Both the position numbers and the translations under genes were made by a program. From an uncultured Actinomycetes bacterium (lineage in GTDB: Bacteria; Actinomycetota; Thermoleophilia; UBA2241): a stretch of 64,000 nt of DNA. The notes under the pieces were generated by a model. That model searched no databases. It was given only the letters and a program-made list of their open reading frames with translations, and was not told the DNA's origin. Shown one piece after another: positions 22,116 through 54,925 of the stretch; position 1 is the stretch's first letter, and each line of letters opens with the position of its first letter. The stretch spans positions 40,775 through 104,774 of the forward strand of contig CAVWIH010000026.1 in NCBI GenBank assembly GCA_963755025.1. Reading direction: 5' to 3'.

Positions 22116-22191
<76 letters not shown>

Positions 22192-42384: not shown

Positions 42385-43863
42385 CTATCGCACCGCGACG
42401 CCCTTCTCGGCGGCTGCGGCGGCGATGACGTTTTCGATGTGCTGGGCGGCGCCGTCGGGCAGCGGCAGGGGGTGGTGGGTGGCGAGGATCTCGTCGACCC
42501 TGTCGGTGACGCGTTGCGCTTCGGATCTGCCCTCGGCCACCCAGCCGTCGTACGAGCCGCGCACGAAGAGCTGCGGCAGCTGCAGCTCGCCGCTGCGCAG
42601 GAAGCGGCGCGTCTCGCGGGCGGCCAGGAAGTGGCCGCCCGGCCCCACCCGCGCCGTGACGTCGAACATGACGTGCTCGTCGTCGAAGGCGACGCCGGCC
42701 ATGAGGCGCTGGCCCTGGCGGATGAGCTCGGCGTCGAGCAGCATCTTGGGCAGGTAGAGCAGCTGGGCCGAGTCGAGCATGCCGACGCCGGTCAGCAGGT
42801 CGGCTCCGGCGAGCATGGTGCAGTACGCCATCGGCGCGCCGTCGGAGCCGACCTGCACGCAGAGCTCCTTGGCGTCTGACGACAGGCCGCAGGAGAGCAC
42901 CGGCACGCCGTAGTGGCGCCCCATCTCGGTGAGCGCCAGGTTGAGCAGGACCTCTTCGGGGCCGGCCGAGGTGTAGGTCGAGGTGCGCATGTCCATGATG
43001 CCGGCGTTGCCCACGTAGATCAGCGGGCAGCCCGGCACGGCGAGCTGCAGGATGGCGAAGGCGGCCAGGCCCTCGGCGTTGGTCTGCACGGCGGTGCCGG
43101 CCAGGGTGAGCGGCGCGGTGGCGCCGGCCATGGCCAGGCTGTAGACGGTGATGGGCACGCCCTGCTCGGCGAGCAGGATGGCCGCCTCGAGGCTGTCGGC
43201 GTCGTGCTGCAGCGGGCTCACCGGGCAGTAGACGATCGAGAAGATGGGGCGCTCGGGCCGCCACACGCCGCCCGGGCTCGCGGCCGCGAGGATCTCCATG
43301 ACGTAGGGCACGTCGGCGGGGTCGGTGACCTCGCCCTGCACGTGCTTGGCGCTGCCGGTGAGCATGGCCTGCAGGCCGCGCAGCGACTGCAGGTCGGGCT
43401 CTTCGTCGCAGGGGTAGGCGGTGTACCAGAGCACGCCGACCTCGTCGAGCGCGTCGGCGACGGTCATGGCCTCGCGCAGGTCGCGGGCCGTCGAGGGGCG
43501 CCGCTCGCCGGTACGGTGGTCGAGGCACATGGCGCCCATGCCGTCGTGGGTGGCCCAGGTGCGCGTGTGGTCGAGCAGCGCGTCCTTTTCGGGGTCGCGC
43601 GCGGCCAGCAGCACGTGCTGGGGGGCGCGGGCGAGGGCCGACTCGACGAGCTCGCGCGGCAGGCGCACGATCTGCGTCTCTTCGTCGACCGCGGCGCCCG
43701 CGTCGCGCAGCAGCGCCTGGGCGCGGGCCAGCGGCACGCGCACGCCGACCTCGGCGAGCAGCCGCAGCGACTGCGCGTGCACGTAGTCGATGGCCGCTTC
43801 GTCGAGCATGCTCAGTCGCGGGCGCAGCACGCCGGCGAAGCCGCCGCCCGTCGGGGAGCTCAT
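42385..43863 (-). CDS. MttB-superfamily methyltransferase, non-pyrrolysine
   Basis: LAARDP, SPLQ, MAGATAPLTLAG, DMRT, SDAK, VGPGGHFL; no in-frame amber codon. Confidence 0.88.
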   Translation of the reverse strand: MSSPTGGGFAGVLRPRLSMLDEAAIDYVHAQSLRLLAEVGVRVPLARAQALLRDAGAAVDEETQIVRLPRELVESALARAPQHVLLAARDPEKDALLDHTRTWATHDGMGAMCLDHRTGERRPSTARDLREAMTVADALDEVGVLWYTAYPCDEEPDLQSLRGLQAMLTGSAKHVQGEVTDPADVPYVMEILAAASPGGVWRPERPIFSIVYCPVSPLQHDADSLEAAILLAEQGVPITVYSLAMAGATAPLTLAGTAVQTNAEGLAAFAILQLAVPGCPLIYVGNAGIMDMRTSTYTSAGPEEVLLNLALTEMGRHYGVPVLSCGLSSDAKELCVQVGSDGAPMAYCTMLAGADLLTGVGMLDSAQLLYLPKMLLDAELIRQGQRLMAGVAFDDEHVMFDVTARVGPGGHFLAARETRRFLRSGELQLPQLFVRGSYDGWVAEGRSEAQRVTDRVDEILATHHPLPLPDGAAQHIENVIAAAAAEKGVAVR

Positions 43864-44020
43864 GCGAGCACCAGGCCGAAGCCGCCGCTGCGCGGCCGGC
43901 CGGCGAACAGGTTCCGTTTCACGCGGTGACCTCCGTTCGGGGAGCGAGCATACCGGCGACCGCGTGGGGCGGGGCCGGTGACTGCGCTGATTAAGTCAGT
44001 CGGATGAATCATTCTGTGGT

Positions 44021-44048
44021 AGTCTACGAGCCTGTAGCGGACTGTCAA
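44021..44048 (-). promoter_or_regulatory. sigma70-type promoter for the MttB gene
   Basis: Minus strand TTGACA-N16-TAGACT in the divergent mttB/tetR intergenic region. Confidence 0.55.
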
Positions 44049-44105
44049 GCGGTGCCGCGGGCGGTCCGGCTGCCGAGTCGTCACGCCGTCAACGGGGGGT
44101 CGTCG

Positions 44106-44789
44106 ATGTCACAGGAGAAGAACGCGCGTCGCTGGGAGGTCGGCGGCCGTCCGGCGCCGGGCGCCGACCCTGCCGCCGACCTCGCGCCGACGGCGGCGCG
44201 CATCCTCGAGGCCAGCAAGCGCTTGCTCGACGAAAAAGGGTTCACCGGCCTCACCTTCGAGGCGATCGCCGCCGAGGCCCACGAGAACAAGGGGAGCATC
44301 CGCTACCACTTCGGCAACAAGGCCGGGCTGATCGAGGCCCTGGCCGACTCGGTGGTCCACGACGACAACGTCGCGCTGCTCAAGGCCCTGCGCAAGCCCG
44401 GCGCCGGCGGCGCCGACCACGTGGCCATGCTGCTGGCCATGCACCGGCGCTCGACCAAGGCGCAGCTGGGCTACCGGCGCTTCTGGGACCTCTTTCCGCA
44501 GCTCATTCGCGACGAGGAGCTGCGGCCGCGCATGGCCGAGCTGTACCGCTGGTATCGCGACCTCGACGAGTGGGCGCTGGCGCCCGACGCCGACGCGCGC
44601 CTCAAGCGCGAGCTCGACCCGCTGGCGGCCCTCACGGTGGCCGTCTGCGACGGCCTCGCCGAGCAGGTCGCCGCCGACCGCGACTTCGACGTCGACGCCG
44701 TGTTCGACTACTGGGAGGTCGTCGTGCGCGAGCTGCGCGACCGGGCCTTTCGCGCGGCCGGGCTCGAGCCTGGAGAGCCGCGGCCGTAG
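44106..44789 (+). CDS. TetR-family transcriptional regulator
   Basis: RILEASKRLLDEKGFTGLTFEAIA...IRYHFGNK HTH. Confidence 0.9.
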   Translation: MSQEKNARRWEVGGRPAPGADPAADLAPTAARILEASKRLLDEKGFTGLTFEAIAAEAHENKGSIRYHFGNKAGLIEALADSVVHDDNVALLKALRKPGAGGADHVAMLLAMHRRSTKAQLGYRRFWDLFPQLIRDEELRPRMAELYRWYRDLDEWALAPDADARLKRELDPLAALTVAVCDGLAEQVAADRDFDVDAVFDYWEVVVRELRDRAFRAAGLEPGEPRP

Positions 44790-44882: not shown

Positions 44883-45724
44883 CTACCCCAGGATGAGGCG
44901 CTGCGGGTCGACCTCGTCGCGCAGGATGCGCAGCTCGTCGGCGGTCGGCGGCACGGCGTCGACGGCGCGCGAGGTGTCGAGCGCGAATCCCGTGTTGTCG
45001 GCGATGTGGGCGTCGCTCACGCCGGGGTAGCGCTCGGCCAGGTACATCTCGTGGCTGGTCTCGTCGAACTTGAGCACGCAGAGGTCGGTGACCACGGCCA
45101 GCGGGCCGCCGCGGCGAAAGCCGGCCTTGTGGCGGCTGTCGCCGCCCTCGAGCCAGCCGGGGCTCGTGAGGTAGTCGAGGCGTCTCCACGAACTTGCGCC
45201 GTCCGTGCTGCATGAAGACGATGAAGGCCGAGGCCAGCGAGGCCGCGTCGCTGGCGCCGCCGCTGCCCGAGAAGCGCACGGTGGGGTGCTCGTAGTCGCC
45301 GATGCAGGTCGAGTTCAGGTTGCCGTAGCTTGTCGATCTGGGCGGCTCCCAGAAAGGCGATCGTGTGCAGCCGCGGGCTGGCGATGTACGAGAACGCCTC
45401 GATGATGCCGGCGTTGATGCAGGTGCCGTCCATGACGCGCGGGTCGGCCACCGCGAGCGGGATCTCGTCGAGCGACGGGTCGATGCCGCCGGTCTCGACG
45501 AACACCACGGCGCCCGGCGCGTGGATGCGCTTTGCGCAGCCGGCGGCGAGCAGCGCCACGCCGGTGCCGGCGAACAGGATGTCGCCGTCCGACACAAAGC
45601 GCCCGGCGGCGATCGCCATCATCTCGCGCGGGGTGAAGGGTTGCGTGTTGGCCACGGGCTGCGCGTCGGCCAAAGGCTGCGCGTCGGCCGTTCGCTGCGC
45701 GTCGCTGTCGAGTCGCTCGCTCAT
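44883..45724 (-). CDS. CoA-transferase subunit B (glutaconate CoA-transferase-like), frameshifted
   Basis: FAGTG, FLGAAQID, GNLNST, SGSGGASD, VTDLCVL. Confidence 0.82.
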
Positions 45725-45728
45725 CGCC

Positions 45729-46722
45729 TCACCGCCTGTCCAGTCCGATGGCGTAGCCGCGCACCGGGTCGGCCTTGATGCGCGCGAGCTGGTCGGCGCC
45801 GATCTCTGGCCACGTACTCGTCGTGGCCGGCGAGCGCCGTAGACCCACTCGTCGAGAAACGCCGCCCAGGCCTGGTCGTCGCGCGCGGCGCGCGCGTAGT
45901 CGTTCAAAAAGCCGGGGTCGTAGTCGTAGAAGAAGCGGCAAGCGGTGGGGTGGGCGCCGTAGTGGCACGCACACGATGGCGTCGACCAGGAACGGCGGCA
46001 GCGCGTTCTGGTCGGGGTCGGCGCGCAGCGTCGGCGGCCGGCACGATCTCCTCGCAGGTCACGACGACCGCCTTGGCGGCCTTGGCCTGCTCCAAGTCGG
46101 CGAAGGTCAGGCCCTTGATGCGCACGGTGCCGTCGTCGCCCACGGTCTGCACGTGCAGCACGGTCAGGTCGGGCGTGAGGGCGGGCAGCAGCACGAGGTC
46201 GCCGCCGTCGGCCTCGCCGTCGCCGTCAAACGGGTCGGGCATGACGACGAGCTTCTGGGCGGGCAGGCCGTGGGCGGCTCGGTAGGCCGGCGAGAAGCCC
46301 TGACGGGCGACGAGGTCGGTGTGCAGGCCCGACTTGGTGGGGATGAAGGGCACGTTCAGCGCGCCCGCCAGAAAGCGCAGCGCCATGTGGTAGTTGGAGT
46401 AGTCCTCGACAGCGACCTCGCCGCGCTCGGCCGCGCGGCGAAAGCGCACGCAGGTGGGGGCGAAGCGGCCGTTGCCGCCGTAGGCCACCTCGATGCGGCT
46501 CACGCAGCCGGCCCCGACCAGCGTGTCGAGCGCCTGGCCGTTGGAGTGCGCCACGAGGTGCAGGCCGCGCACGCGGCGGCGCGCCATCTCGTAGACGAAG
46601 GCCATGGGGTTGCGGTTGATGGTGAAGCCGCCCAGGGCCACCACGCCGCCGTCGTGCGCAAAGCGCTCCACGGCGTCGCCTAGGGTCGTGAGCTTGCCGC
46701 CGATGTCTGACGCCGCAGTCAC
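45729..46722 (-). CDS. CoA-transferase subunit A (glutaconate CoA-transferase-like), frameshifted
   Basis: ALGGFTINRNP, LRFLAGALNVPFIP, PALTPD..LHVQ..D..G. Confidence 0.82.
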
Positions 46723-46774
46723 TGCCGTGCCTTTCGATCGCCACCGCTGTCGCTCCGGGCGCCCGGGTGGTCGC

Positions 46775-46876
46775 GAGAATGCGAAAGCCCCCAGGCAGCC
46801 GTGTGCGCTCGCTGGGGGCCCGTGGCCGCGCTGGACGGCCGGTGAAGCGGCGTCGTCCGAGCTACGGAAGCAGCGC
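46775..46876 (-). promoter_or_regulatory. Structured 5' leader with terminator hairpin, copy A (candidate attenuator/riboswitch)
   Basis: Follows TTGCGC-N16-TAGGAT; shares GCCCCCAGCGAGCGCACACGGC and predicted fold with 47517-47620. Confidence 0.6.
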
Positions 46877-46976
46877 TGCCATCCTATCGCGCAGCGGCGG
46901 CGGCGCAAGGCCGGGTCGGGTAGACTACGGGCGTCGTGGCGCGGCCCCCGGGGCCGCGCGCGCCGGAGGTGACGCT

Positions 46977-47338
46977 CTGCAGACGTATCTGTTTTCGGGT
47001 TACGCACGCCTGCCGCAAGACGTCTCGCACCAGAACGTCAATCGCCGCGTGGGCATCGTGGTCGAGCTCGACGAGCGCGGCGTGGTCACCGCCTGCTCGA
47101 GCACGCTCCTCATGGACCTCGCCCGCGACTTCTTCGCGCGCCTGCTGACCGGCCGCTCGCTCGTCACCGAGCGCGCCGAGATCGAGGCGACATCCACACC
47201 TTCTACCTGGGCCACTCCCAGGCCGCTCTGCTGTTCGCCCTGCATCAGGTCTTCGAGGCCGTCGACCTCTCGACGGCGCCGTTCGCGGCCGGGGGCGCCA
47301 CGCCGAGGGCTCGGCGCCGACCGGCGGTCGGCGAGTAG
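46977..47338 (+). CDS. DUF3870-family protein (apparent CTG start, frameshift ~47190)
   Basis: TYLFSGYARLPQ...GIVVELD..GVV..CSSTL pattern; GGAGGT RBS 6 nt before CTG. Confidence 0.6.
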
Positions 47339-47516
47339 CCCGAAGGGCCGCAACGACAGGCGGAGGCGAGTAGCCCGAGGGGCTCGGCGCCGACGGGCGG
47401 CGGGTTGCCACGGCGCCGGAGGCGTGGCCCGAGGGGCCGCGACGGACCAGTCGCCCGGCCGGCGCGGGACACGCCGTCACGTTGTCGGCGGCGCGGCGGC
47501 GCGTATATGATTCGTG

Positions 47517-47620
47517 GTGCTGCACACATGGCTCGGCGCGGCCTTTCCGGTCGGCGCCGCAGCGGCCATGAGCCCCCAGCGAGCGCACACGGCGCGTCTC
47601 TGGGGGCGTTCTTGCTTTTC
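47517..47620 (+). promoter_or_regulatory. Structured 5' leader with terminator hairpin, copy B
   Basis: Follows TTGTCG-N18-TATGAT; GCCCCCAG...CTGGGGGC followed by GTTCTTGCTTTTC. Confidence 0.6.
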
Positions 47621-47687
47621 GGGGGCGCCGGACGCGCGATGGCGAGCAAGAGCGCGGCCGGTCGCCGGTCGCGACGAGGAGGAGCGC

Positions 47688-48923
47688 ATGGACTTCAGGT
47701 ACTCGACCGAGCAGAACCTTTACCGCCAGGCCATCCGCGAGTGGCTCACCAAGAACCTCGAGCCGCGCGCCCGCGCCATCGACGCCGCCGAAGACGGCAT
47801 TCCCGACGACATCACGGCCGGCATGGCCGAGCTCGGCATCTTCGGCGTGACCATCCCCGAGGAGTACGGCGGCCTGCCGCTGCCCGACGACGAGCGCCTG
47901 ATCTACGCCATGATCACGGTCCACGAGATCGCCCGCGCCGACCTAGTCGATGAGCACGCCGGTCTACACGCTGCTCACCATGGGCTGGTCGTACATGATC
48001 AACCGCTACGGCACCGAGGAGCTCAAGCAGGAGGTCCTGCCGCTGGCCGCCCAGGGCAAGACCTTCGTGGGCATCAACACCACCGAACCCGGCGGCGGCT
48101 CCGACCTGGGCGCCATCAAGACCACCGCCATCTGGAACGACGACAAGCAGGTCTTCATGCTGAACGGCGAGAAGGCCTACGTCTCCGGCCCCAAGGAGTG
48201 CGCCAAGCTGGGTCCGCCCAGCGGCCACTGCACGCTGGTCAAGACCGACCCCGACTCGGGCCACAAGGGCATGACCTTCATCTGGGTGCCCGCCCACCTG
48301 CGACGGCATCCAGTGACACGTCTACGACGACATGGGCCGCATGGGCCTGTCGACCGGCGGCTGGATCTACAACGACGTCGAGCTGCCCCGCAAGTACGTG
48401 CTGGGCGAAGAGGGCAAGGGCTTCTACGCCGTCATGGACGGCTTCAACACGGCGCGCGTGCTGGTCGGCGGCCGCCTGTCTGGGCGGCGCCGAGAAGGCG
48501 CTCGAGATCAGCGGCGAGTACACCGCGCAGCGCACCACGTTCGGCAAGCCGCTCGGCAAGAACGAGGGCATCTCGTTCGAGATGGCCGACGACTGGATGA
48601 TGCTCGACATGGTCAAGCTCAACCTGCTGCGCGGCGCCTGGATGATCGGCCAGGAGCACACCAACCCGGGCACGTTCTCGCGCAAGGAGATCAACAAGGT
48701 CATCAGCACCTGCAAGTGCCAGGCGCCGCCGCTGGCCCACGAGATCGCGCGTCACGGCATGATGTACCACGGCGCCTTCGGCTACACCAAGGAGACGCCG
48801 CTCGAGATGATGCTGCGCGGCGTCATGAGCTACGAGGTCGGCGCCGAGGGCGGCCTCATGGTCATGCGCGGCGTGATCGCCCGCGACGAGTGGGGCGAGA
48901 CGCACAACCCGTTCAAAGACTAG
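47688..48923 (+). CDS. Acyl-CoA dehydrogenase (several frameshifts)
   Basis: MDFRYSTEQ, IPEEYGG, TEPGGGSD, LNGEKAYVS, QRTTFGKPL, HGAFGY. Confidence 0.88.
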   Translation: MDFRYSTEQNLYRQAIREWLTKNLEPRARAIDAAEDGIPDDITAGMAELGIFGVTIPEEYGGLPLPDDERLIYAMITVHEIARADLVDEHAGLHAAHHGLVVHDQPLRHRGAQAGGPAAGRPGQDLRGHQHHRTRRRLRPGRHQDHRHLERRQAGLHAERREGLRLRPQGVRQAGSAQRPLHAGQDRPRLGPQGHDLHLGARPPATASSDTSTTTWAAWACRPAAGSTTTSSCPASTCWAKRARASTPSWTASTRRACWSAAACLGGAEKALEISGEYTAQRTTFGKPLGKNEGISFEMADDWMMLDMVKLNLLRGAWMIGQEHTNPGTFSRKEINKVISTCKCQAPPLAHEIARHGMMYHGAFGYTKETPLEMMLRGVMSYEVGAEGGLMVMRGVIARDEWGETHNPFKD

Positions 48924-49079
48924 GCGCGCAACGCAGTCGCGCACGCCTGAGCGGCGACGACGGAGTCGGTCGACGGACTAGGCGCGCAACGAAGTAGCGC
49001 AGCCTGAGCGGCGACGACGGAGTCGGTCGACGGACTGAGCGGCGACGACGAAGTCGATCGACAGACTGAGCGGCGACGC
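48918..49079. repeat. Nested intergenic direct repeats (31-bp unit)
   Basis: CTGAGCGGCGACG starts at 48947, 49004, 49035, 49066; GACTAGGCGCGCAACG at 48918 and 48976. Confidence 0.85.
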
Positions 49080-49099
49080 AACCCGAGGAGGCGGGCGAC

Positions 49100-50389
49100 G
49101 TGGAGAAGGTCGAATGCATCGTGGTGGGCGGCGGCCTCGCCGGCCTCGCGGCCGCCTACGGGCTGGCCCGTGACGGCGTCGAGGTCATGGTGCTCGAGCG
49201 CGGCAACTACTCGGGCTCAAAGAACGTCACCGGCGGCCGGCTCTACGTGCGCGCCTTGCGCCACGTCTTTCCCGAGCTCTGGGACGACGCGCCCTTCGAG
49301 CGGCCGGTCGCACACGAGCTGATCACCCTGCTCGGCGACGGCGCGGCCACCACGGTCGAGCTCGCCTCGCAGCGCCTCGCGGGGCCGTCGCCGCAGTCCT
49401 ACACGGTGCAGCGCGCCCGCTTCGACCAGTGGTTCGCCGACAAGGCGACCGCTGCCGGCGCCATGGTCGTCAGCGACATGAAGGCCGACGAGCTGCTGCT
49501 CGACGGCGACCGGGTGATCGGCGTGCGCGCCGGCGGCGACGAGGTCGGCGCCGACGTGACGATCGTCGCCGAGGGCGTGCTGGGCTTGCTGGCGAGCGGG
49601 GCGGGGCTGCGCGAGCAGCCCCGCCCCGCCGACCACGCCGTCGGCTTCAAAGAGATCATCGAGCTGCCGGCGGGTGTCATCGAAGACCGCTGGCGCCTGA
49701 ACGAAGGCGAGGGCGCCGCGCAGCTCTTCATGGGCGAGGTCAGCCGCGGCATGACCGGCGGCGGCTTTCTCTACACCAACCGCGACTCGATCGCCCTGGG
49801 CGTGGTGGTCGCCATGGACCAGCTGCGCACGCGCACCGACGGCCTCGAGTCGTGGCAGCTGCTCGACGCCTTCAAGGAGACCGCCCAGATCAAGCCGCTG
49901 GTGCGCGGCGGCACGCTCGCCGAGTACTCGGCGCACGCCGTCTTCGAGGGCGGCGCCGACCGCCTGCCGCGGCCCTACGGGGCGGGCTACCTGCTGGCCG
50001 GCGAGACCGCCGGCTTTGCCCTGAACGCCCTGGTCACCGTGCGCGGCATGGACCTTGCCATCGCCTCTGGGTGGGCGGCGGCGCGGGCGGCCCTGGCCGC
50101 CCGCGCCGCCGGCGACTCGTCGGCCGCCACGCTGTCGGTCTACGAGCGCTTTCTGCGCGAGACCTTCGTCACGGCCGCCATGCAGGCCGGGCGCGGCGTG
50201 CCGCAGGCCATCGAGAACCGCCGCCTGTTCACCGAGTACCCCGGCGCCGTGGCGCGCCTGCTCGAGGGCTTCTTCGCGGTCGACGACGATAGCCAGGCGA
50301 CGCTGCTGCGCACCAGCCTGCGCGGCGCGCGCCGCGAGTTCCTGAAGGTCGACACGCTCAAGGACCTCTGGTCCTTGCGCAAGGTCTAG
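49100..50389 (+). CDS. fixC: FixC-like ETF:quinone oxidoreductase
   Basis: VVGGGLAG, ERGNYSGSKNVTGG, GGGFLYTN, RGMDLAI. Confidence 0.9.
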   Translation: MEKVECIVVGGGLAGLAAAYGLARDGVEVMVLERGNYSGSKNVTGGRLYVRALRHVFPELWDDAPFERPVAHELITLLGDGAATTVELASQRLAGPSPQSYTVQRARFDQWFADKATAAGAMVVSDMKADELLLDGDRVIGVRAGGDEVGADVTIVAEGVLGLLASGAGLREQPRPADHAVGFKEIIELPAGVIEDRWRLNEGEGAAQLFMGEVSRGMTGGGFLYTNRDSIALGVVVAMDQLRTRTDGLESWQLLDAFKETAQIKPLVRGGTLAEYSAHAVFEGGADRLPRPYGAGYLLAGETAGFALNALVTVRGMDLAIASGWAAARAALAARAAGDSSAATLSVYERFLRETFVTAAMQAGRGVPQAIENRRLFTEYPGAVARLLEGFFAVDDDSQATLLRTSLRGARREFLKVDTLKDLWSLRKV

Positions 50390-50402
50390 AGGTGATGCCG
50401 TC

Positions 50403-50771
50403 GTGAGCGAGCCCACCGATCGCGCGCCCGACAGCGGCGCCCCCGAGAACGCGGCGCCCGGCGGCGCATCGAGCGGCGCCGCGGGTCAGCCGCCGGGTGG
50501 CGTCGACGCCAAGCTCGGCGCCGACGTCTTCAAGCTCGACACCGAGCCGCACATCGTGATCGACGTCGAGAAGTGCCGCACGGTCTGCACGCAGCGCGCC
50601 TGCCTGCTGGTCTGTCCGGCCGACCTGTACGAGCTGAACGACCAGGGCGACATGACGGTCAACTGGGAGGGCTGCCTCGAGTGCGGCACCTGCCTGATCT
50701 GCTGCGACCCCCAGGCCCTGAGCTGGCAGTACCCGCGCGGCGGCTTCGGCGTGCAGTACCGGATGAGTTAG
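50403..50771 (+). CDS. fixX: FixX ferredoxin-like protein
   Basis: CPADLY, GCLECGTC, WQYPRGGFGV. Confidence 0.9.
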   Translation: MSEPTDRAPDSGAPENAAPGGASSGAAGQPPGGVDAKLGADVFKLDTEPHIVIDVEKCRTVCTQRACLLVCPADLYELNDQGDMTVNWEGCLECGTCLICCDPQALSWQYPRGGFGVQYRMS

Positions 50772-50785
50772 GAGAGGTGAAGGCT

Positions 50786-51595
50786 GTGGAGATCGCCGTG
50801 TGCGTGAAGACCAACCCCGACCTGCAGCTCATGCGCGTCAAAGACCGCGTGCCGGTGCTCGAGGCGGTGCCCTTCAAGGTGGGCGACCTCGAGAAGAACG
50901 CCCTCGAGGCGGCCCTGCAGCTGCGCGACGCCGCCGGCGGCGGGCGCATCGTGGCGGTCGCCGTGGCGCAGGGCGACCGCAAGATCCGCGAGACCATGAA
51001 AGAGGCCCTGGCGATCGGCGCCGACGAAGCCGTGATCGTCGCCGACCCGGCTCTCGACGAAACGGATCAGGCCGGCGTCGCGCTCGCCCTCGCGCGCGCG
51101 CTTGAGAAGTCGGGGCCGTTCGACCTGGTGCTGTTCGGCGAGGGCTCGACCGACGGCTACTCGGGTCAGGTGCCCTCGCGGGTCGCCGAGCTGCTCGGCC
51201 TGCCCGAGCTCGGCTACGCGCGCGCCCTCGAAGTCACAGGCGTCGGTCCCGACGCCGGCGGCTCCGGCGCCGTGCTGCGCGCCGAGCGCACCATGGGCGA
51301 CACGCTCGAGACGCTCGAGGCGGCGCTGCCCGCCGTGGCCACCGTGGTGAGCGAGATCAACGAACCCCGCATTCCCACCCTCATGAGCATCATGAAGGCC
51401 GGCAAGAAGCCGGTGGCCGAACTCACCCTGGCCGACCTGTCCCTCGACGCCGCGGCGCTGGCGCCGCTGCGCGCCGTCAAGTCAAACCTGGCCGAGGAGC
51501 AGTCACGCAAGCGCGTGCTGTTCGACGGCGAACCGGCCGCCCAGGCCGAGGCCCTGATCAACGCGCTGGTCGCCGAAGGCGTCCTGGGAAGGTGA
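50786..51595 (+). CDS. etfB: Electron transfer flavoprotein beta subunit
   Basis: IAVCVK..PD, ALAIGADEA, STDGYSGQV, INEPRIP. Confidence 0.92.
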   Translation: MEIAVCVKTNPDLQLMRVKDRVPVLEAVPFKVGDLEKNALEAALQLRDAAGGGRIVAVAVAQGDRKIRETMKEALAIGADEAVIVADPALDETDQAGVALALARALEKSGPFDLVLFGEGSTDGYSGQVPSRVAELLGLPELGYARALEVTGVGPDAGGSGAVLRAERTMGDTLETLEAALPAVATVVSEINEPRIPTLMSIMKAGKKPVAELTLADLSLDAAALAPLRAVKSNLAEEQSRKRVLFDGEPAAQAEALINALVAEGVLGR

Positions 51596-51600
51596 GGGCG

Positions 51601-52560
51601 ATGACCGCGATCCTCGTGTATTCGGAACAGCTCGACACGGCCCTCGAGCTGCTGGGCGCCGCCCAGACGCTCGCCCCGCAGCTCGACCTGACGGTGAGCG
51701 CGGCGGTGCTGGGCGCCGAGGCGGCCGCGCAGGCGGCCGCCCTGGCCGCCCGCGGCGCCGCGCCGGTCTACCTGTGCACCGAGCCCGCCCTCGAGGGGCT
51801 CGACACAGGCGTAGCCGCCCAGGCGCTCGCCCACATCGCCGAACAGGCCGGCGCGAGCCTCGTGCTGCTCGGCTCGACGCGCCGTGGCCGGGCGCTCGCC
51901 GGCCGCCTCGCGCAGCGGCTGGGCGCCGGCTGCGTGACCGACGCCGGCTCGCTGGCCGTCGAAGACGGCCTGCTCGTGGCCGGCCGCTACAACCTGGGCG
52001 GCGCCACCGTGCAGCGCGAGGCGCTCACCTCGGCCGTGCAGGTGGTGGCCGTCATGCCCAAGGTCTTCGCCGCCGACGAGGCGGGCGCCGCCGCCGCGGG
52101 CGCCGACGCCATCGTCGAGGTCTCGCCGGGCCTCGCCGCGCCCGCCGTGCGCGTCGTCGACCGCCGGCCCAAAGAGGGCGAGGCCGTCGACCTGGCCGCC
52201 GCCGCGCGTATCGTGGGCGTGGGCCGCGGCCTCGCCAAGCGCGACGACGTGACGCTCGGCGAGGGACTGGCCGCGGCCCTCGGCGCCGAGCTGGCCTGCA
52301 CCAAGAGCCTGGCCGATTTCGGCTGGATGTCCGACGACCGCATCGTCGGGCTCTCGGGCGCCAAGACGAGCCCCGAGGTCTACCTGGCGGTGGGCATCTC
52401 GGGCCAGGTGCAGCACACCGTCGGCATGGCGCAGGCGCGGGTCGTGGCGGTCGTCAATCAGGACAAGGACGCGCCCATCTTCGCCTTGGCCGACTACGGC
52501 GTGGTCGGCGACCTCTACCAGATCGTGCCCGCGCTGATCGAGCGCCTCAAGACGCTGTAG
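51601..52560 (+). CDS. etfA: Electron transfer flavoprotein alpha subunit
   Basis: VGVGRG, YLAVGISGQVQH, NQDKDAPIF..ADYGVVGD. Confidence 0.92.
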   Translation: MTAILVYSEQLDTALELLGAAQTLAPQLDLTVSAAVLGAEAAAQAAALAARGAAPVYLCTEPALEGLDTGVAAQALAHIAEQAGASLVLLGSTRRGRALAGRLAQRLGAGCVTDAGSLAVEDGLLVAGRYNLGGATVQREALTSAVQVVAVMPKVFAADEAGAAAAGADAIVEVSPGLAAPAVRVVDRRPKEGEAVDLAAAARIVGVGRGLAKRDDVTLGEGLAAALGAELACTKSLADFGWMSDDRIVGLSGAKTSPEVYLAVGISGQVQHTVGMAQARVVAVVNQDKDAPIFALADYGVVGDLYQIVPALIERLKTL

Positions 52561-52729
52561 CGCCCCCGCGCGCCGTCGCCGCCGCTTGGCATAGACTCTG
52601 GTTGCGGCGCGTCGGCTGCGCTCGTCTGCGGGCCGGCGGCCGCCGGTGGCGGCCATTCACGGCAGGCCGTGCGCCGACGTTCCGATCGGATACCATCGAG
52701 CCAGTCGATCAGGCCACGGGCAGGAGGTC

Positions 52730-54925
52730 ATGGAGCTCATGGAGCTCTCGCAGCAGCCCCCCGAACGGGCGTCGCAGATCGTCGCGGGAGCGCTGGCGGC
52801 GGGCCGTGGCGCTCTCGACGAGCACGAGGGCAAGGCTCTGCTCGCCGCCTACGGCGTGTCGGTGCCGGCCGGCGGCCTCGCTCACTCGCGCGACGAGGCC
52901 CTCGCCCTGGCCGCCTCGATCGACGCCCCCGTGGCGCTCAAAGCAGTGGGCGAGAAGGTCCAGCACAAGACCGAACGGCGCCTGGTGCTCCTCGGCCTGC
53001 GCAGTCCCGACGAGGTGGCCGCCGCCTACGACGGTCTCACCGAGCGCGCCGGCGACGCCCTCGAAGCCATCCTGGTCGAAGAGATGGTGGCCGGCGCGCG
53101 CGAGTTCATGGTCGGCATGAAGCGCGACGCGGCCTTCGGCCCTGTGGTGGCCTTCGGCGTGGGCGGCGTGTTCACCGAGGCCCTCGCCGACGTGGCGCTC
53201 GCCCTGGCGCCGGTCGACGAACACGAGGCCGCCGACCTGCCCGGACTGATTCGCGCCAGGCGCCTGCTGGGCCGGTTCCGCGGCTTGCCGGCGGTCGACC
53301 AGCGACGACTCGCCCAGGTCATCCAGGCCGTGGGACGCATCGCCGTCGATCACCCCCAGATCGCTGAGATCGACCTGAACCCGCTCATCATCTCGGGCGA
53401 CCGGCCGGTGGCGGCCGATGCCCTGGTCGTGCTCTCGAGCGCGCCGGCTGCGCCGGCGCCTGCGGAGCGCCCCGTCGCCGACCTGCGGGCCGTCTGTGCG
53501 CCGCGTTCGGTGGCCATCGTGGGCGCCTCAGACGACGTCGGCAAATGGGGCGGCTCCGCCTTGCGCAACATCTTGGACGGCGGCTTCGAAGGCGCCATCT
53601 ACCCGGTCAGCCCCCACGGCGGCGCCTTCTTCGGCCTGCCCGTGTACGCGAGCCTCGCCGACCTGCCCCAGGCCCCCGACCTGGCCCTGCTGGCCGTCGG
53701 CGCATGGCAGGCCGCCGGCCTGGTCGAGCAGTGCGGACGGGCCGGCGTGCGGGCCGCCGTGGCCATCGCCGCCGGCTTCTCTGAGACCGGCGACGAGGGC
53801 GGCCAGGCCGAGCTCGAGCTGGCCGCGGCGGCCGCCGCCGCCGGCGTCACCCTGATAGGCCCCAACTGCATGGGGCTGGTCACCAACGAGACCCACCTGC
53901 ACGCCACCGGTTTCATCACGCTGCACCCGCCCGAGGGTCCACTCAGCCTGGTCTCGCAGTCGGGCAACCTCGGCGTGCAGCTGGTCAAAGCTTCCGAGCG
54001 GCGCGCCATAGGGCTCGACAAGTTCATCGGCGTGGGCAACGAGGCCCGCGTGAGCGCCGTCGACGTGCTCGACTACCTGCGCACCGACGACCGCACCCGC
54101 TGCGTCCTCATGTACCTCGAGGGCATCGACGACGGCCGCCGCTTCACCGAGGTGGCCGCCCGCACGACCGCCGTCAAGCCGGTCGTCGTGATGCGCGGCG
54201 GCCTGACCGACCAGGGCGGCCGGGCGGCCGCCTCGCACACCGGCGCCCTGGCCGGTTCGGCCGCCGTGTACGAGGCCGCCGCCCGCGAGGCCGGCGTGAT
54301 CACCTGCACGGCATCAGACGACGCGCTCGACCTGGGCGTCGCCCTGGCCTACCTGCCGCCGCCGCGCGGCCGCCGCGTGGCGGTCATCACCAACGGCGGC
54401 GGGGCCGGCGTGCTGGCCGCCGACGAAGTGGCCCGTCACGACCTGACGCTCGCCGACCTGCCCGAGGCGCTGCTCGCCGAGCTCGACGCCCTGCTGCCGC
54501 CGTTCTGGAGCCGCCGCAACCCGCTCGACCTGGTGGCGTCGGCCGGCGGCGACGTGGCCCGGCTCGTGCTCACCGCCGTCGCCGGCAGTGACTCAGTCGA
54601 CGCCGTCATCATGCTCTCGGTACTGGGCGTGTCGAACACCGGCGACGACCAGCGCCCCGAGAGCGCCGGCGGCGAGTACGACGGCTTCAGCCCCTGGGAG
54701 ACCGAGTTCCTCGCCTGCGCCGCCGCGCTCATGGAGACCACCGGCAAGCCCATCATCAACGTGCCCGACCTGCCGATCCGCCAGGCCGTGCCGGCCGGCG
54801 ACGGCCGCTACGCGCCGGTCGTGCTGCCGTCGCCGCGGGCCGCCGCGCAGGCGCTCGACCGCCTGGCCTGGTACGGCGACCATCGCCGGCGCCACGCGGC
54901 GGGCTTGCCTCACGATCGCGAGTAA
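52730..54925 (+). CDS. NDP-forming acyl-CoA synthetase, beta-alpha fusion
   Basis: N-terminal ATP-grasp (HKTE, FGPVVAFG, EIDLNP), then SVAIVGAS, IGPNCMG, SQSG, SHTGALAG. Confidence 0.88.
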   Translation: MELMELSQQPPERASQIVAGALAAGRGALDEHEGKALLAAYGVSVPAGGLAHSRDEALALAASIDAPVALKAVGEKVQHKTERRLVLLGLRSPDEVAAAYDGLTERAGDALEAILVEEMVAGAREFMVGMKRDAAFGPVVAFGVGGVFTEALADVALALAPVDEHEAADLPGLIRARRLLGRFRGLPAVDQRRLAQVIQAVGRIAVDHPQIAEIDLNPLIISGDRPVAADALVVLSSAPAAPAPAERPVADLRAVCAPRSVAIVGASDDVGKWGGSALRNILDGGFEGAIYPVSPHGGAFFGLPVYASLADLPQAPDLALLAVGAWQAAGLVEQCGRAGVRAAVAIAAGFSETGDEGGQAELELAAAAAAAGVTLIGPNCMGLVTNETHLHATGFITLHPPEGPLSLVSQSGNLGVQLVKASERRAIGLDKFIGVGNEARVSAVDVLDYLRTDDRTRCVLMYLEGIDDGRRFTEVAARTTAVKPVVVMRGGLTDQGGRAAASHTGALAGSAAVYEAAAREAGVITCTASDDALDLGVALAYLPPPRGRRVAVITNGGGAGVLAADEVARHDLTLADLPEALLAELDALLPPFWSRRNPLDLVASAGGDVARLVLTAVAGSDSVDAVIMLSVLGVSNTGDDQRPESAGGEYDGFSPWETEFLACAAALMETTGKPIINVPDLPIRQAVPAGDGRYAPVVLPSPRAAAQALDRLAWYGDHRRRHAAGLPHDRE

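Follow-up and report, generated by a model that had tools for sequence, protein, structure and literature searches.

The 64,000-nucleotide window analysed here (the whole stretch, from contig CAVWIH010000026.1 of an uncultured Thermoleophilia bacterium) carries two copies of a structured leader RNA of about 100 nucleotides (nt), one at the head of a coenzyme A (CoA)-transferase operon on the minus strand (operon A) and the other at the head of an acyl-CoA dehydrogenase operon on the plus strand (operon B). The 965 bases between the two operons (46723-47687) hold two promoter-leader units, both facing outwards. Each leader comprises a core of about 70 nt, in which a helix P0 closes an internal loop, a helix P1 and an irregular hairpin P2, followed by a predicted transcription terminator that shares one C-rich strand with the core. 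No described family was found in Rfam 15 or in the literature, and the element appears from its sequence to be a new RNA family that would use a known type of mechanism. We tentatively favour, at a chance approaching even, the reading that it is a cis-acting 5′ leader RNA that would act as a riboswitch-type transcription-attenuation ON switch. The effector would most likely be a small pathway molecule, either a carboxylic-acid substrate or a CoA thioester. An initial annotation, made from the letters of the window, had proposed a ligand- or protein-controlled leader switch for an acyl-CoA pathway, and covariation, the shared strand and the leader position now lend this prediction computational support.

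Two copies of one leader in a divergent intergenic region

A covariance model of the whole element (model R1), built from 24 copies in 13 genomes, recovers both leaders where the initial annotation had placed them (Table 1). Both begin just 3′ of a sigma-70-type promoter, directly after the −10 boxes that had been pointed out, TAGGAT for copy A and TATGAT for copy B, and these boxes are conserved upstream of related copies. The hexamers of promoter A stand at the same positions upstream of 10 other A-type copies, and a simple promoter scan left them unflagged; a conserved promoter precedes all 24 copies first collected. The two copies share 79% column identity in the alignment, each folds into the described hairpins with z-scores against shuffled sequences of −2.5 and −2.9, and together they form a 32-nt inverted repeat that is 94% complementary.

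A 22-mer had been described as identical in both copies. This is correct for the window's genome, whose 3.37 Mb (84% complete) contain exactly two occurrences; the window likewise has exactly two, where 100 shuffles predict 0.02. It is not, however, a general feature of the family. The identity is limited to this genome and its closest relative (G004), and the terminator loops of copies A and B differ in the other 8 genomes of the genus with both copies. The identical 22-mer is therefore specific to this lineage, and the part of its region that is generally conserved is GCCCCCAGC.

Structure and covariation of the core

Anatomy, pair and conservation counts were taken over 111 distinct core sequences aligned with a core-only covariance model (model R2). 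The 5′ end opens with two or three bases that vary, after which come GCUGC, invariant in 111 of 111 rows, and two or three loop bases. It is followed by P1, a helix of 7 base pairs (bp) with a nearly invariant closing C-G pair, and by P2, an irregular hairpin of 9-10 bp with a pyrimidine-rich loop. This loop is CCGUCUC in 56 of the 111 rows and is variable within the window's own genus; its length ranges from 4 to 7 nt, with CCGUC, UUUC and CUUC among the other types. After P2 come a joining strand of 3-7 nt, the 3′ strand of P1, a purine-rich spacer of one or two bases, and then CCCC and CAGC, whose positions are conserved in 104-111 of the 111 rows. The invariant C-rich strand reads CCCCCAGC, and GCUGC and CCAG are unchanged in 111 or 110 rows.

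The two leaders had been seen to keep the same pairing with different sequences. CCGUAGC/GCCACGG versus CAUGGC/GCCAUG corresponds to helix P1, where 6 of the 7 pairs change on both sides across the family, and GGACG/CGUCC versus CGGCGC/GCGCCG corresponds to P2, where all 9 of the 9 pairs do so. In the R2 alignment, which is fitted to the model structure, paired cells amount to 89.4%, against 28-45% when the partners are slid by 1-3 columns, and the covariation score is 0.364, against 0.05-0.11 after sliding; none of 500 shuffles reaches 0.364. A MAFFT alignment that is not fitted to the structure already contains covariation in P1, with 13 A-U and 9 G-C combinations at one pair. A covariation-supported structured domain in the 5′ leader, as expected of a riboswitch, is present in this element. 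An all-against-all column scan returned only P1, P2 and terminator pairs, together with artefacts of G/U columns, and no conserved partner for the pyrimidine-rich loop of P2.

Two other features of the leader were considered and dropped. A pseudoknot between the 5′ GCUGC and a GCAGC in the strand joining P2 to P1 is available only in copy B of the window's genome. A leader peptide would have to start at the AUG in P1 of copy B, which is missing from A-type copies (CCGUAGC or CCGCGGC), in agreement with the initial annotation, which had recognised no such peptide.

A strand shared by P0 and the terminator

The arms GCCCCCAG and CUGGGGGC with the U-rich tail, first noted in the two leaders of the window, form the predicted terminator hairpin. 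The 5′ strand of the terminator is exactly (G/A)CCCCCAG in the window's family, and the hairpin is 98.6% paired over 98 distinct copies. Five of its 8 pairs change on both sides, and two sequences pair CCUCC with GGAGG (C-G to U-A). The predicted stability is −20 to −27 kcal/mol in 23 of 24 aligned copies and −10.0 kcal/mol in the remaining one (G015_y); U-rich tails follow in 24 of 24. The loops are variable tetraloops or longer ones, the spacing of the arms varies, and the inner stems are compensatory. The G+C-rich hairpin and the U-rich tract after it, both predicted from sequence, are those of an intrinsic (Rho-independent) terminator.

The competing helix P0 pairs GCUG with CAGC and closes the core. 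Only five changes are seen in it over the 111 rows, four from G-C to G-U and one from U-A to U-G, all of which are compatible with pairing. When the core is folded alone, P0 is part of the minimum free energy (MFE) structure for 102 of the 106 unique cores (median pair probability 0.98), and in copy B of the window the MFE structure includes P0, P1 and P2. When the full element is folded, the terminator is in the MFE structure of 97 of 98, and enforcing P0 costs a median of 9.7 kcal/mol (range 1.4-15.9); the free and enforced energies are −65.9 and −53.7 kcal/mol for copy B and −52.7 and −41.0 kcal/mol for copy A of the window. CCCCCAG(C) is thus shared, belonging to P0 and the internal loop on one side and to the 5′ half of the terminator on the other. 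A mutually exclusive platform with a shared strand, as in riboswitches, is predicted to be present, with P0 itself resting on invariance and thermodynamic prediction. Because of the cost of enforcing P0, the default state should be termination (OFF). Because P0 leaves the C-run unpaired, P0 alone should not prevent termination, so that something must hold the core.

The initial annotation had offered two pairings for an antiterminator. YGCUG with CAGCG is possible throughout the family, but GCUCG with CGAGC does not hold, as its partners vary across the family without compensation. A longer antiterminator register, GYGCU-GC with GC-R-AGCGC, looks compensatory within the genus only (G009_A and G010_A) and was ruled out for the family as a whole, in which the 5′ strand is invariant and the GAG triplet opposite it changes freely. 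RNA-library contigs from four metatranscriptome runs include portions of each leader and extend across terminator B into the dehydrogenase gene.

Distribution among relatives

All genomes compared are metagenome-assembled genomes (MAGs), from which Thermoleophilia are almost exclusively known. The carriers of the element are uncultured soil actinobacteria. DNA search finds both copies in other genomes of the genus. Within the same family, model R1 matches 65 of 89 genomes with 1-3 copies each, in 10 of 11 genera. In a class-wide sample of 150 other genomes, it matches 16 of 25 within the family and 0 of 125 across ten other families. Ten weaker matches come from more distant lineages, including Gaiellales records. 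Model R2 gives 113 matches in 94 loci; it finds a second positive family in the class sample (f4, 2 of 25 genomes) and has no match in 150 other genomes sampled across the phylum. R1 has no match in six Anaerolineae/Chloroflexota loci with a homologous dehydrogenase. A metagenome scan with a loop-plus-P1 pattern hit at least 120 stretches, and 11 of the 80 loci listed carry the element, in 15 copies with no variant of P0 among them.

In genus g10, the copies on the CoA-transferase side are strongly diverged and are seen by R2 only, at 30-39 bits (L071:1595-1664, L054:2317-2386, L047:597-666 and L056:745-814), and the copies on the dehydrogenase side score 80-88 bits.

The gene 3′ of the 99 family copies, in 70 loci, is the dehydrogenase in 65 cases and CoA-transferase subunit A in 32, with one contig end and one gene without a match. 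With 97 of 99 copies in these two 5′ leaders, two copies in the window's own genome and one to three in each positive genome, the element is not a dispersed repeat of the repetitive extragenic palindromic (REP) or miniature inverted-repeat transposable element (MITE) type, the finding that would have told against the initial annotation.

These data also bear on the idea that the element acts as DNA, either as the operator palindrome of a dimeric repressor or as the inverted ends of a small mobile cassette whose cargo would be DUF3870, a small gene that lies between the leaders. The terminator arms GCCCCCAG and CUGGGGGC are indeed an inverted repeat, and copies A and B are inverted around the gene. 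However, the arm spacing varies while the inner stems are compensatory, the 1-3 copies per genome are always oriented with the downstream gene, and distant lineages have a single copy only. Moreover, P1 and P2 keep their pairing while their sequences change, which points to selection on the single strand. We regard a DNA-level element as very improbable.

A second platform in distant lineages

Ten copies from distant lineages, each of which carries a single copy, keep the promoter, GCUGC, P1, P2 with the loop CCGUCUC, and the strand RGCYYCCAGCG. The CUGGGGG terminator is present in only 1 of the 10 (L154). In three others (L166, L158 and L182), the next gene's Shine-Dalgarno region (GGUGGAGG, GCGCUGGAGG) is the best partner for the C-rich strand in the 330 nt that follow and is also paired with it in the MFE structure; the remaining distant copies are ambiguous. 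The same C-rich strand is therefore predicted to be a terminator half in one lineage and an anti-Shine-Dalgarno in another. Riboswitches and protein-binding leaders would both be expected to combine a conserved sensor with exchangeable platforms in this way.

At one distant locus (L161), the operon starts with a family III (CaiB-type) CoA-transferase that replaces the family I enzyme, followed by the same dehydrogenase, FixC, FixX and electron-transfer flavoprotein (ETF) genes. Because the gene set is kept while the CoA-transferase family changes, the RNA goes with the pathway and not with one enzyme. Operons led by a family III enzyme under the element (L161:1901-8830) have similar counterparts at L157, L158, L163 and L166, and a gene for a GntR-HAD fusion lies upstream on the other strand at loci of this type.

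Proposed switching mechanism and the constitutive alternative

In the proposed mechanism, transcription would start a few bases 5′ of the invariant GCUGC, and the nascent RNA would fold the P2 hairpin and the P1 helix. The emerging CAGC would then pair with the 5′ GCUG to form P0, closing the core of about 70 nt with an internal loop that contains the invariant C-run. Without the effector, the exposed C-run would serve as the nucleation site for CUGGGGG, which would displace P0 and end transcription, leaving the operon OFF by default. An effector bound to the core at P0 and the C-rich loop would mask this strand, the toehold for the G-run of the terminator, and allow read-through into the operon. 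Since both operons carry a copy, they would be induced together. Structure, conservation, leader position and the use of one strand by two helices are the observed basis of this reading, to which we add, as the inferred part, the direction of switching and the choice of a metabolite over a protein as effector. A more specific proposal, in which we have somewhat less confidence, is that the core is the aptamer of a new riboswitch class whose ligand, perhaps a CoA thioester, is an intermediate in a CaiA/CaiB/FixABCX-like pathway, with the C-rich strand serving as terminator half or anti-Shine-Dalgarno.

Several points weigh against a metabolite-binding switch. Few unpaired positions outside P0 and the C-run are strictly conserved, and conservation is lower than in most validated aptamers. 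P0 has only 4-5 bp and leaves five C residues free; because both of its strands are invariant, it lacks compensatory proof, and the invariance could reflect recognition of both strands by a protein. The RNA-library data are assembled contigs, from which transcript ends cannot be read. Finally, the DUF3870 gene always adjoins the element, as described in the next section.

The stability of the terminator, which far exceeds that of P0, would also suit a structured leader that is constitutive and does not switch. Such a leader could serve as a site of pausing or processing, as a 5′ structure that confers stability, as the terminator of DUF3870 transcripts or as the source of a small RNA of about 100 nt, with the operons controlled by nearby DNA-binding regulators. 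A TetR gene lies beside operon A, a GntR-family gene lies upstream at L161, and terminator B is downstream of DUF3870 with no other terminator between. However, a promoter directly before a strong terminator would silence both operons unless termination is relieved, copy A is not preceded on its strand by any gene that it could terminate, and the TetR neighbour recurs in only 4 of 75 related loci. Without a switch, it would be difficult to account for the loci that retain the core but have no terminator, and in which the shared strand is paired to the ribosome-binding site instead. We consider a constitutive leader improbable.

DUF3870 and possible protein-mediated antitermination

The same competition between P0 and the terminator could be controlled by a metabolite-sensing RNA-binding protein in place of a metabolite, and the prime candidate for such a protein is DUF3870. 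We regard this alternative as rather unlikely, although less so than a constitutive leader. The gene lies directly upstream of leader B, as hutP does before the hut terminator, and has no leader copy of its own. All 12 genomes examined have it between copies A and B. In 5 of 5 distant-lineage genomes it shares the strand of the element and precedes it by 170-210 nt, despite their different CoA-transferase family, and in 5 of 5 genomes of genus g10 it is again on that strand, at a distance of 1-30 kb upstream. Among the 89 family genomes, RNA and gene are both present in 62 and both absent in 20, with the gene only in 4 and the RNA only in 3; these 7 discordant genomes are all 53-90% complete. 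The invariant strands of P0 would fit sequence-specific protein contacts, and one RNA-library contig, from 78 nt upstream of 47517 to 47628, faintly hints, as far as a contig can, at DUF3870 transcripts that end at terminator B.

On the other side, the co-occurrence of RNA and gene is not independent evidence because it tracks the whole gene cluster. The confident AlphaFold model of DUF3870 (predicted local distance difference test score, pLDDT, 90.6) consists of three strands and then four helices. It is structurally closest to IscU, the C-terminal domain of lipoate ligase, flavin mononucleotide (FMN)-binding domains and the C-terminal domain of CO-dehydrogenase/xanthine-dehydrogenase (molybdo-)flavoproteins, all with Z of 8.4 or less, a range that can reflect a mere common arrangement. 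Neither an RNA-binding attenuation protein nor another known RNA-binding regulator is among the structural matches listed. The protein has no net positive charge, as read from the G010 sequence. It has no match among PDB sequences at E up to 10, scores only 0.83 or less in the ESM Atlas, and a literature search found nothing on this protein type. Paralogues occur in other acyl-CoA gene clusters with no element nearby, which suits a metabolic or flavoprotein accessory role. On these predictions, we consider RNA binding less probable for DUF3870 than an accessory role in flavoprotein or acyl-CoA metabolism; if the switch reading is true, it would raise a testable function for the DUF3870 family. 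A bold proposal would be that the protein is the first member of a new family of antiterminators that sense a metabolite and bind RNA.

A further point against a protein effector is that, in the window's genome, the gene is broken while both leaders and operons are intact. Compared with the closest relative (G004), its sole copy in this genome has a 1-nt deletion near 47187 and no canonical start codon, with GCT where the relative has GTG. The gene is intact in 11 other genomes, and an RNA-library contig of a relative has the extra base near 47187. The disruption may be pseudogene decay or an error of MAG assembly.

A second DUF3870 subfamily, with a MAGDRC..GYAKLP start, is found at the end of enoyl-CoA hydratase-type operons (L183-L187) in the same distant genomes, where no copy of the leader lies close by.

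Relation to known systems

Searches of Rfam 15, whose models cover actinobacterial motifs such as 6C as well as T-boxes, ANTAR targets and riboswitches, agree with the initial annotation that the element belongs to no known family. At gathering thresholds, the whole window contains only a tRNA (22116-22188). At E up to 10, the region 46600-47800 gives only a chance match to CRISPR-DR23 (17.6 bits against a threshold of 45), and four related loci give no match at E up to 1.

The pbuE (ydhL) adenine riboswitch is an ON-type transcriptional riboswitch in which the closing helix of the sensor shares a strand with an intrinsic terminator. The arrangement proposed here is similar in that a stabilised sensor would prevent termination and switch on a catabolic or export operon. 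It also resembles ON-type riboswitches in which one sensor is joined to different platforms by lineage, here a terminator or Shine-Dalgarno pairing. In contrast, there is no similarity to pbuE in sequence or structure: the element consists of a single irregular hairpin (P0, internal loop, P1, bulge, P2) and not of a three-way junction. HutP/hut, PyrR and ANTAR are protein-dependent antitermination systems, and like them the window has a leader with a terminator directly 3′ of a small candidate regulator gene, DUF3870 before leader B. The gene order thus fits a HutP-like system, and the matches listed for DUF3870 are IscU-like and flavoprotein domains, with no attenuation protein among them. 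ANTAR leaders have two tandem hexaloop hairpins with A at position 1 and G at position 4, the second of which overlaps the terminator; unlike these, the element has P2 loops of 4-7 nt, mostly CCGUCUC, which do not fit the ANTAR pattern.

The E. coli cai and fix operons are divergent. They likewise combine an acyl-CoA dehydrogenase-type enzyme, a CoA-transferase and FixABCX-type proteins in two divergent units. However, their regulator is the DNA-binding activator CaiF, as against the two copies of a leader RNA that would regulate the operons here, and the dehydrogenase of the window is far under the NCBIfam cut-off for CaiA. One paper describes CaiF as activated by crotonobetainyl-CoA, a CoA thioester of its pathway (PMC12083890), and another describes the bbu cluster of a gut bacterium, with an acyl-CoA dehydrogenase-like enzyme and class III CoA-transferases (PMC8364193). 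By these analogies only, the pathway acid or a CoA thioester would be the first ligand candidates.

Literature searches joining riboswitch with Thermoleophilia found no paper, and those on riboswitches with carnitine or caiA, and on orphan riboswitches with acyl-CoA or CoA-transferase, gave nothing relevant among the matches listed. We know of no natural riboswitch for a CoA-thioester-type ligand. If the proposal is correct, the element would be a new, well-supported cis-regulatory RNA family from Thermoleophilia and a direct handle on an uncharacterised acyl-CoA/ETF pathway that is common in these organisms. Since the effector should be a substrate or intermediate of the pathway, identifying the ligand would reveal which pathway this is. 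With its small size, about 110 distinct natural variants and two kinds of platform, the element would be easy to test in vitro and is a potential sensor part.

Genes and other features of the locus

Operon A encodes the two subunits of a CoA-transferase of the glutaconate CoA-transferase type, and operon B starts with a CaiA-like dehydrogenase (Table 1). The latter scores far under the cut-off of every named NCBIfam enzyme, CaiA included, with 86 bits for acryloyl-CoA reductase (cut-off 640) and 34 bits for crotonobetainyl-CoA dehydrogenase (cut-off 540).

Table 1 Features of the two leader units and operons. Positions are those of the window; R1 is the whole-element model and R2 the core-only model
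Feature	Position	Strand	Details
Operon A	45017..46722	−	CoA-transferase, two subunits, glutaconate CoA-transferase type (Pfam PF01144, PDB)
CoA-transferase subunit A	46722-45904	−	PF01144; PDB chain 1poi_A (glutaconate CoA-transferase), E 1.6e-32
CoA-transferase subunit B	45907-45017	−	PF01144
Leader copy A, whole (core and terminator)	46774..46877	−	R1 86 bits, E 1.8e-17
Core A	46808..46877	−	R2 45.6 bits
P0, core A	46874-46871 / 46814-46811	−	GCUG / CAGC
P1, core A	46867-46861 / 46827-46821	−	
P2, core A	46858-46833	−	
C-rich internal-loop strand, core A	46820-46815	−	
Terminator A	46775..46819	−	GCCCCCAG 46819-46812 / CUGGGGGC 46794-46787; U-rich tail 46786-46775
Promoter A	46881..46908	−	−35 TTGCGC 46908-46903; −10 TAGGAT 46886-46881
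DUF3870 gene, small	46977..47338	+	Between the two leaders; Pfam PF12986
Promoter B	47482..47511	+	TTGTCG-18-TATGAT; flagged by promoter scan, conserved in upstream alignment
Leader copy B, whole	47516..47620	+	R1 89.9 bits, E 2e-18; fold z-score −2.86
Core B	47516..47583	+	R2 63.6 bits
P0, core B	47519-47522 / 47577-47580	+	GCUG / CAGC
P1, core B	47527-47533 / 47564-47570	+	
P2, core B	47534-47559	+	
C-rich loop strand, core B	47571-47576	+	
Terminator B	47572..47619	+	GCCCCCAG 47572-47579 / CUGGGGGC 47600-47607; U-rich tail 47608-47619; flagged by consensus terminator scan
Operon B	47688..54925	+	Pfam and NCBIfam
Acyl-CoA dehydrogenase, CaiA-like	47688-48923	+	First gene of operon B
FixC-like	49100-50389	+	Operon B
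FixX-like	50403-50771	+	Operon B
ETF beta	50573-51595	+	Operon B; open reading frame
ETF alpha	51592-52560	+	Operon B
ADP-forming acyl-CoA synthetase	52646-54925	+	Operon B

Operon A is flanked by an uninterrupted gene for an MttB-family methyltransferase (42385-43863, minus strand) and by the TetR regulator gene (44004-44789, plus strand). MttB recurs in 0 of the 75 related loci and TetR in the 4 given above, and both are therefore probably outside the conserved unit; they were dropped as clues to the substrate.

The intergenic region has further sequence features. A G+C-rich palindrome, CGCGGCCCCCGGGGCCGCGC, lies at 46940-46959 between promoter A and the start of DUF3870; it is 85% complementary to 47422-47441 and is missing from the upstream sequence of the closest relative. 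Short direct repeats on the plus strand at 47307-47441, between the stop codon of DUF3870 and promoter B, comprise GTAGCCCGARGGGC three times and GGGCTCGGCGCCGACNGGCGG twice, and in relatives the matching region encodes a variable tail of DUF3870 that is rich in Gly, Ala, Lys, Arg and Glu. After terminator B, a second conserved segment (47620-47687, plus strand) consists of (C)GGGGAGCGCCGGCGC and then a hairpin, GGCCGGTCGCCGGTCGC; it is located just 5′ of the Shine-Dalgarno sequence of the dehydrogenase gene and is common to the B leaders of the genus.

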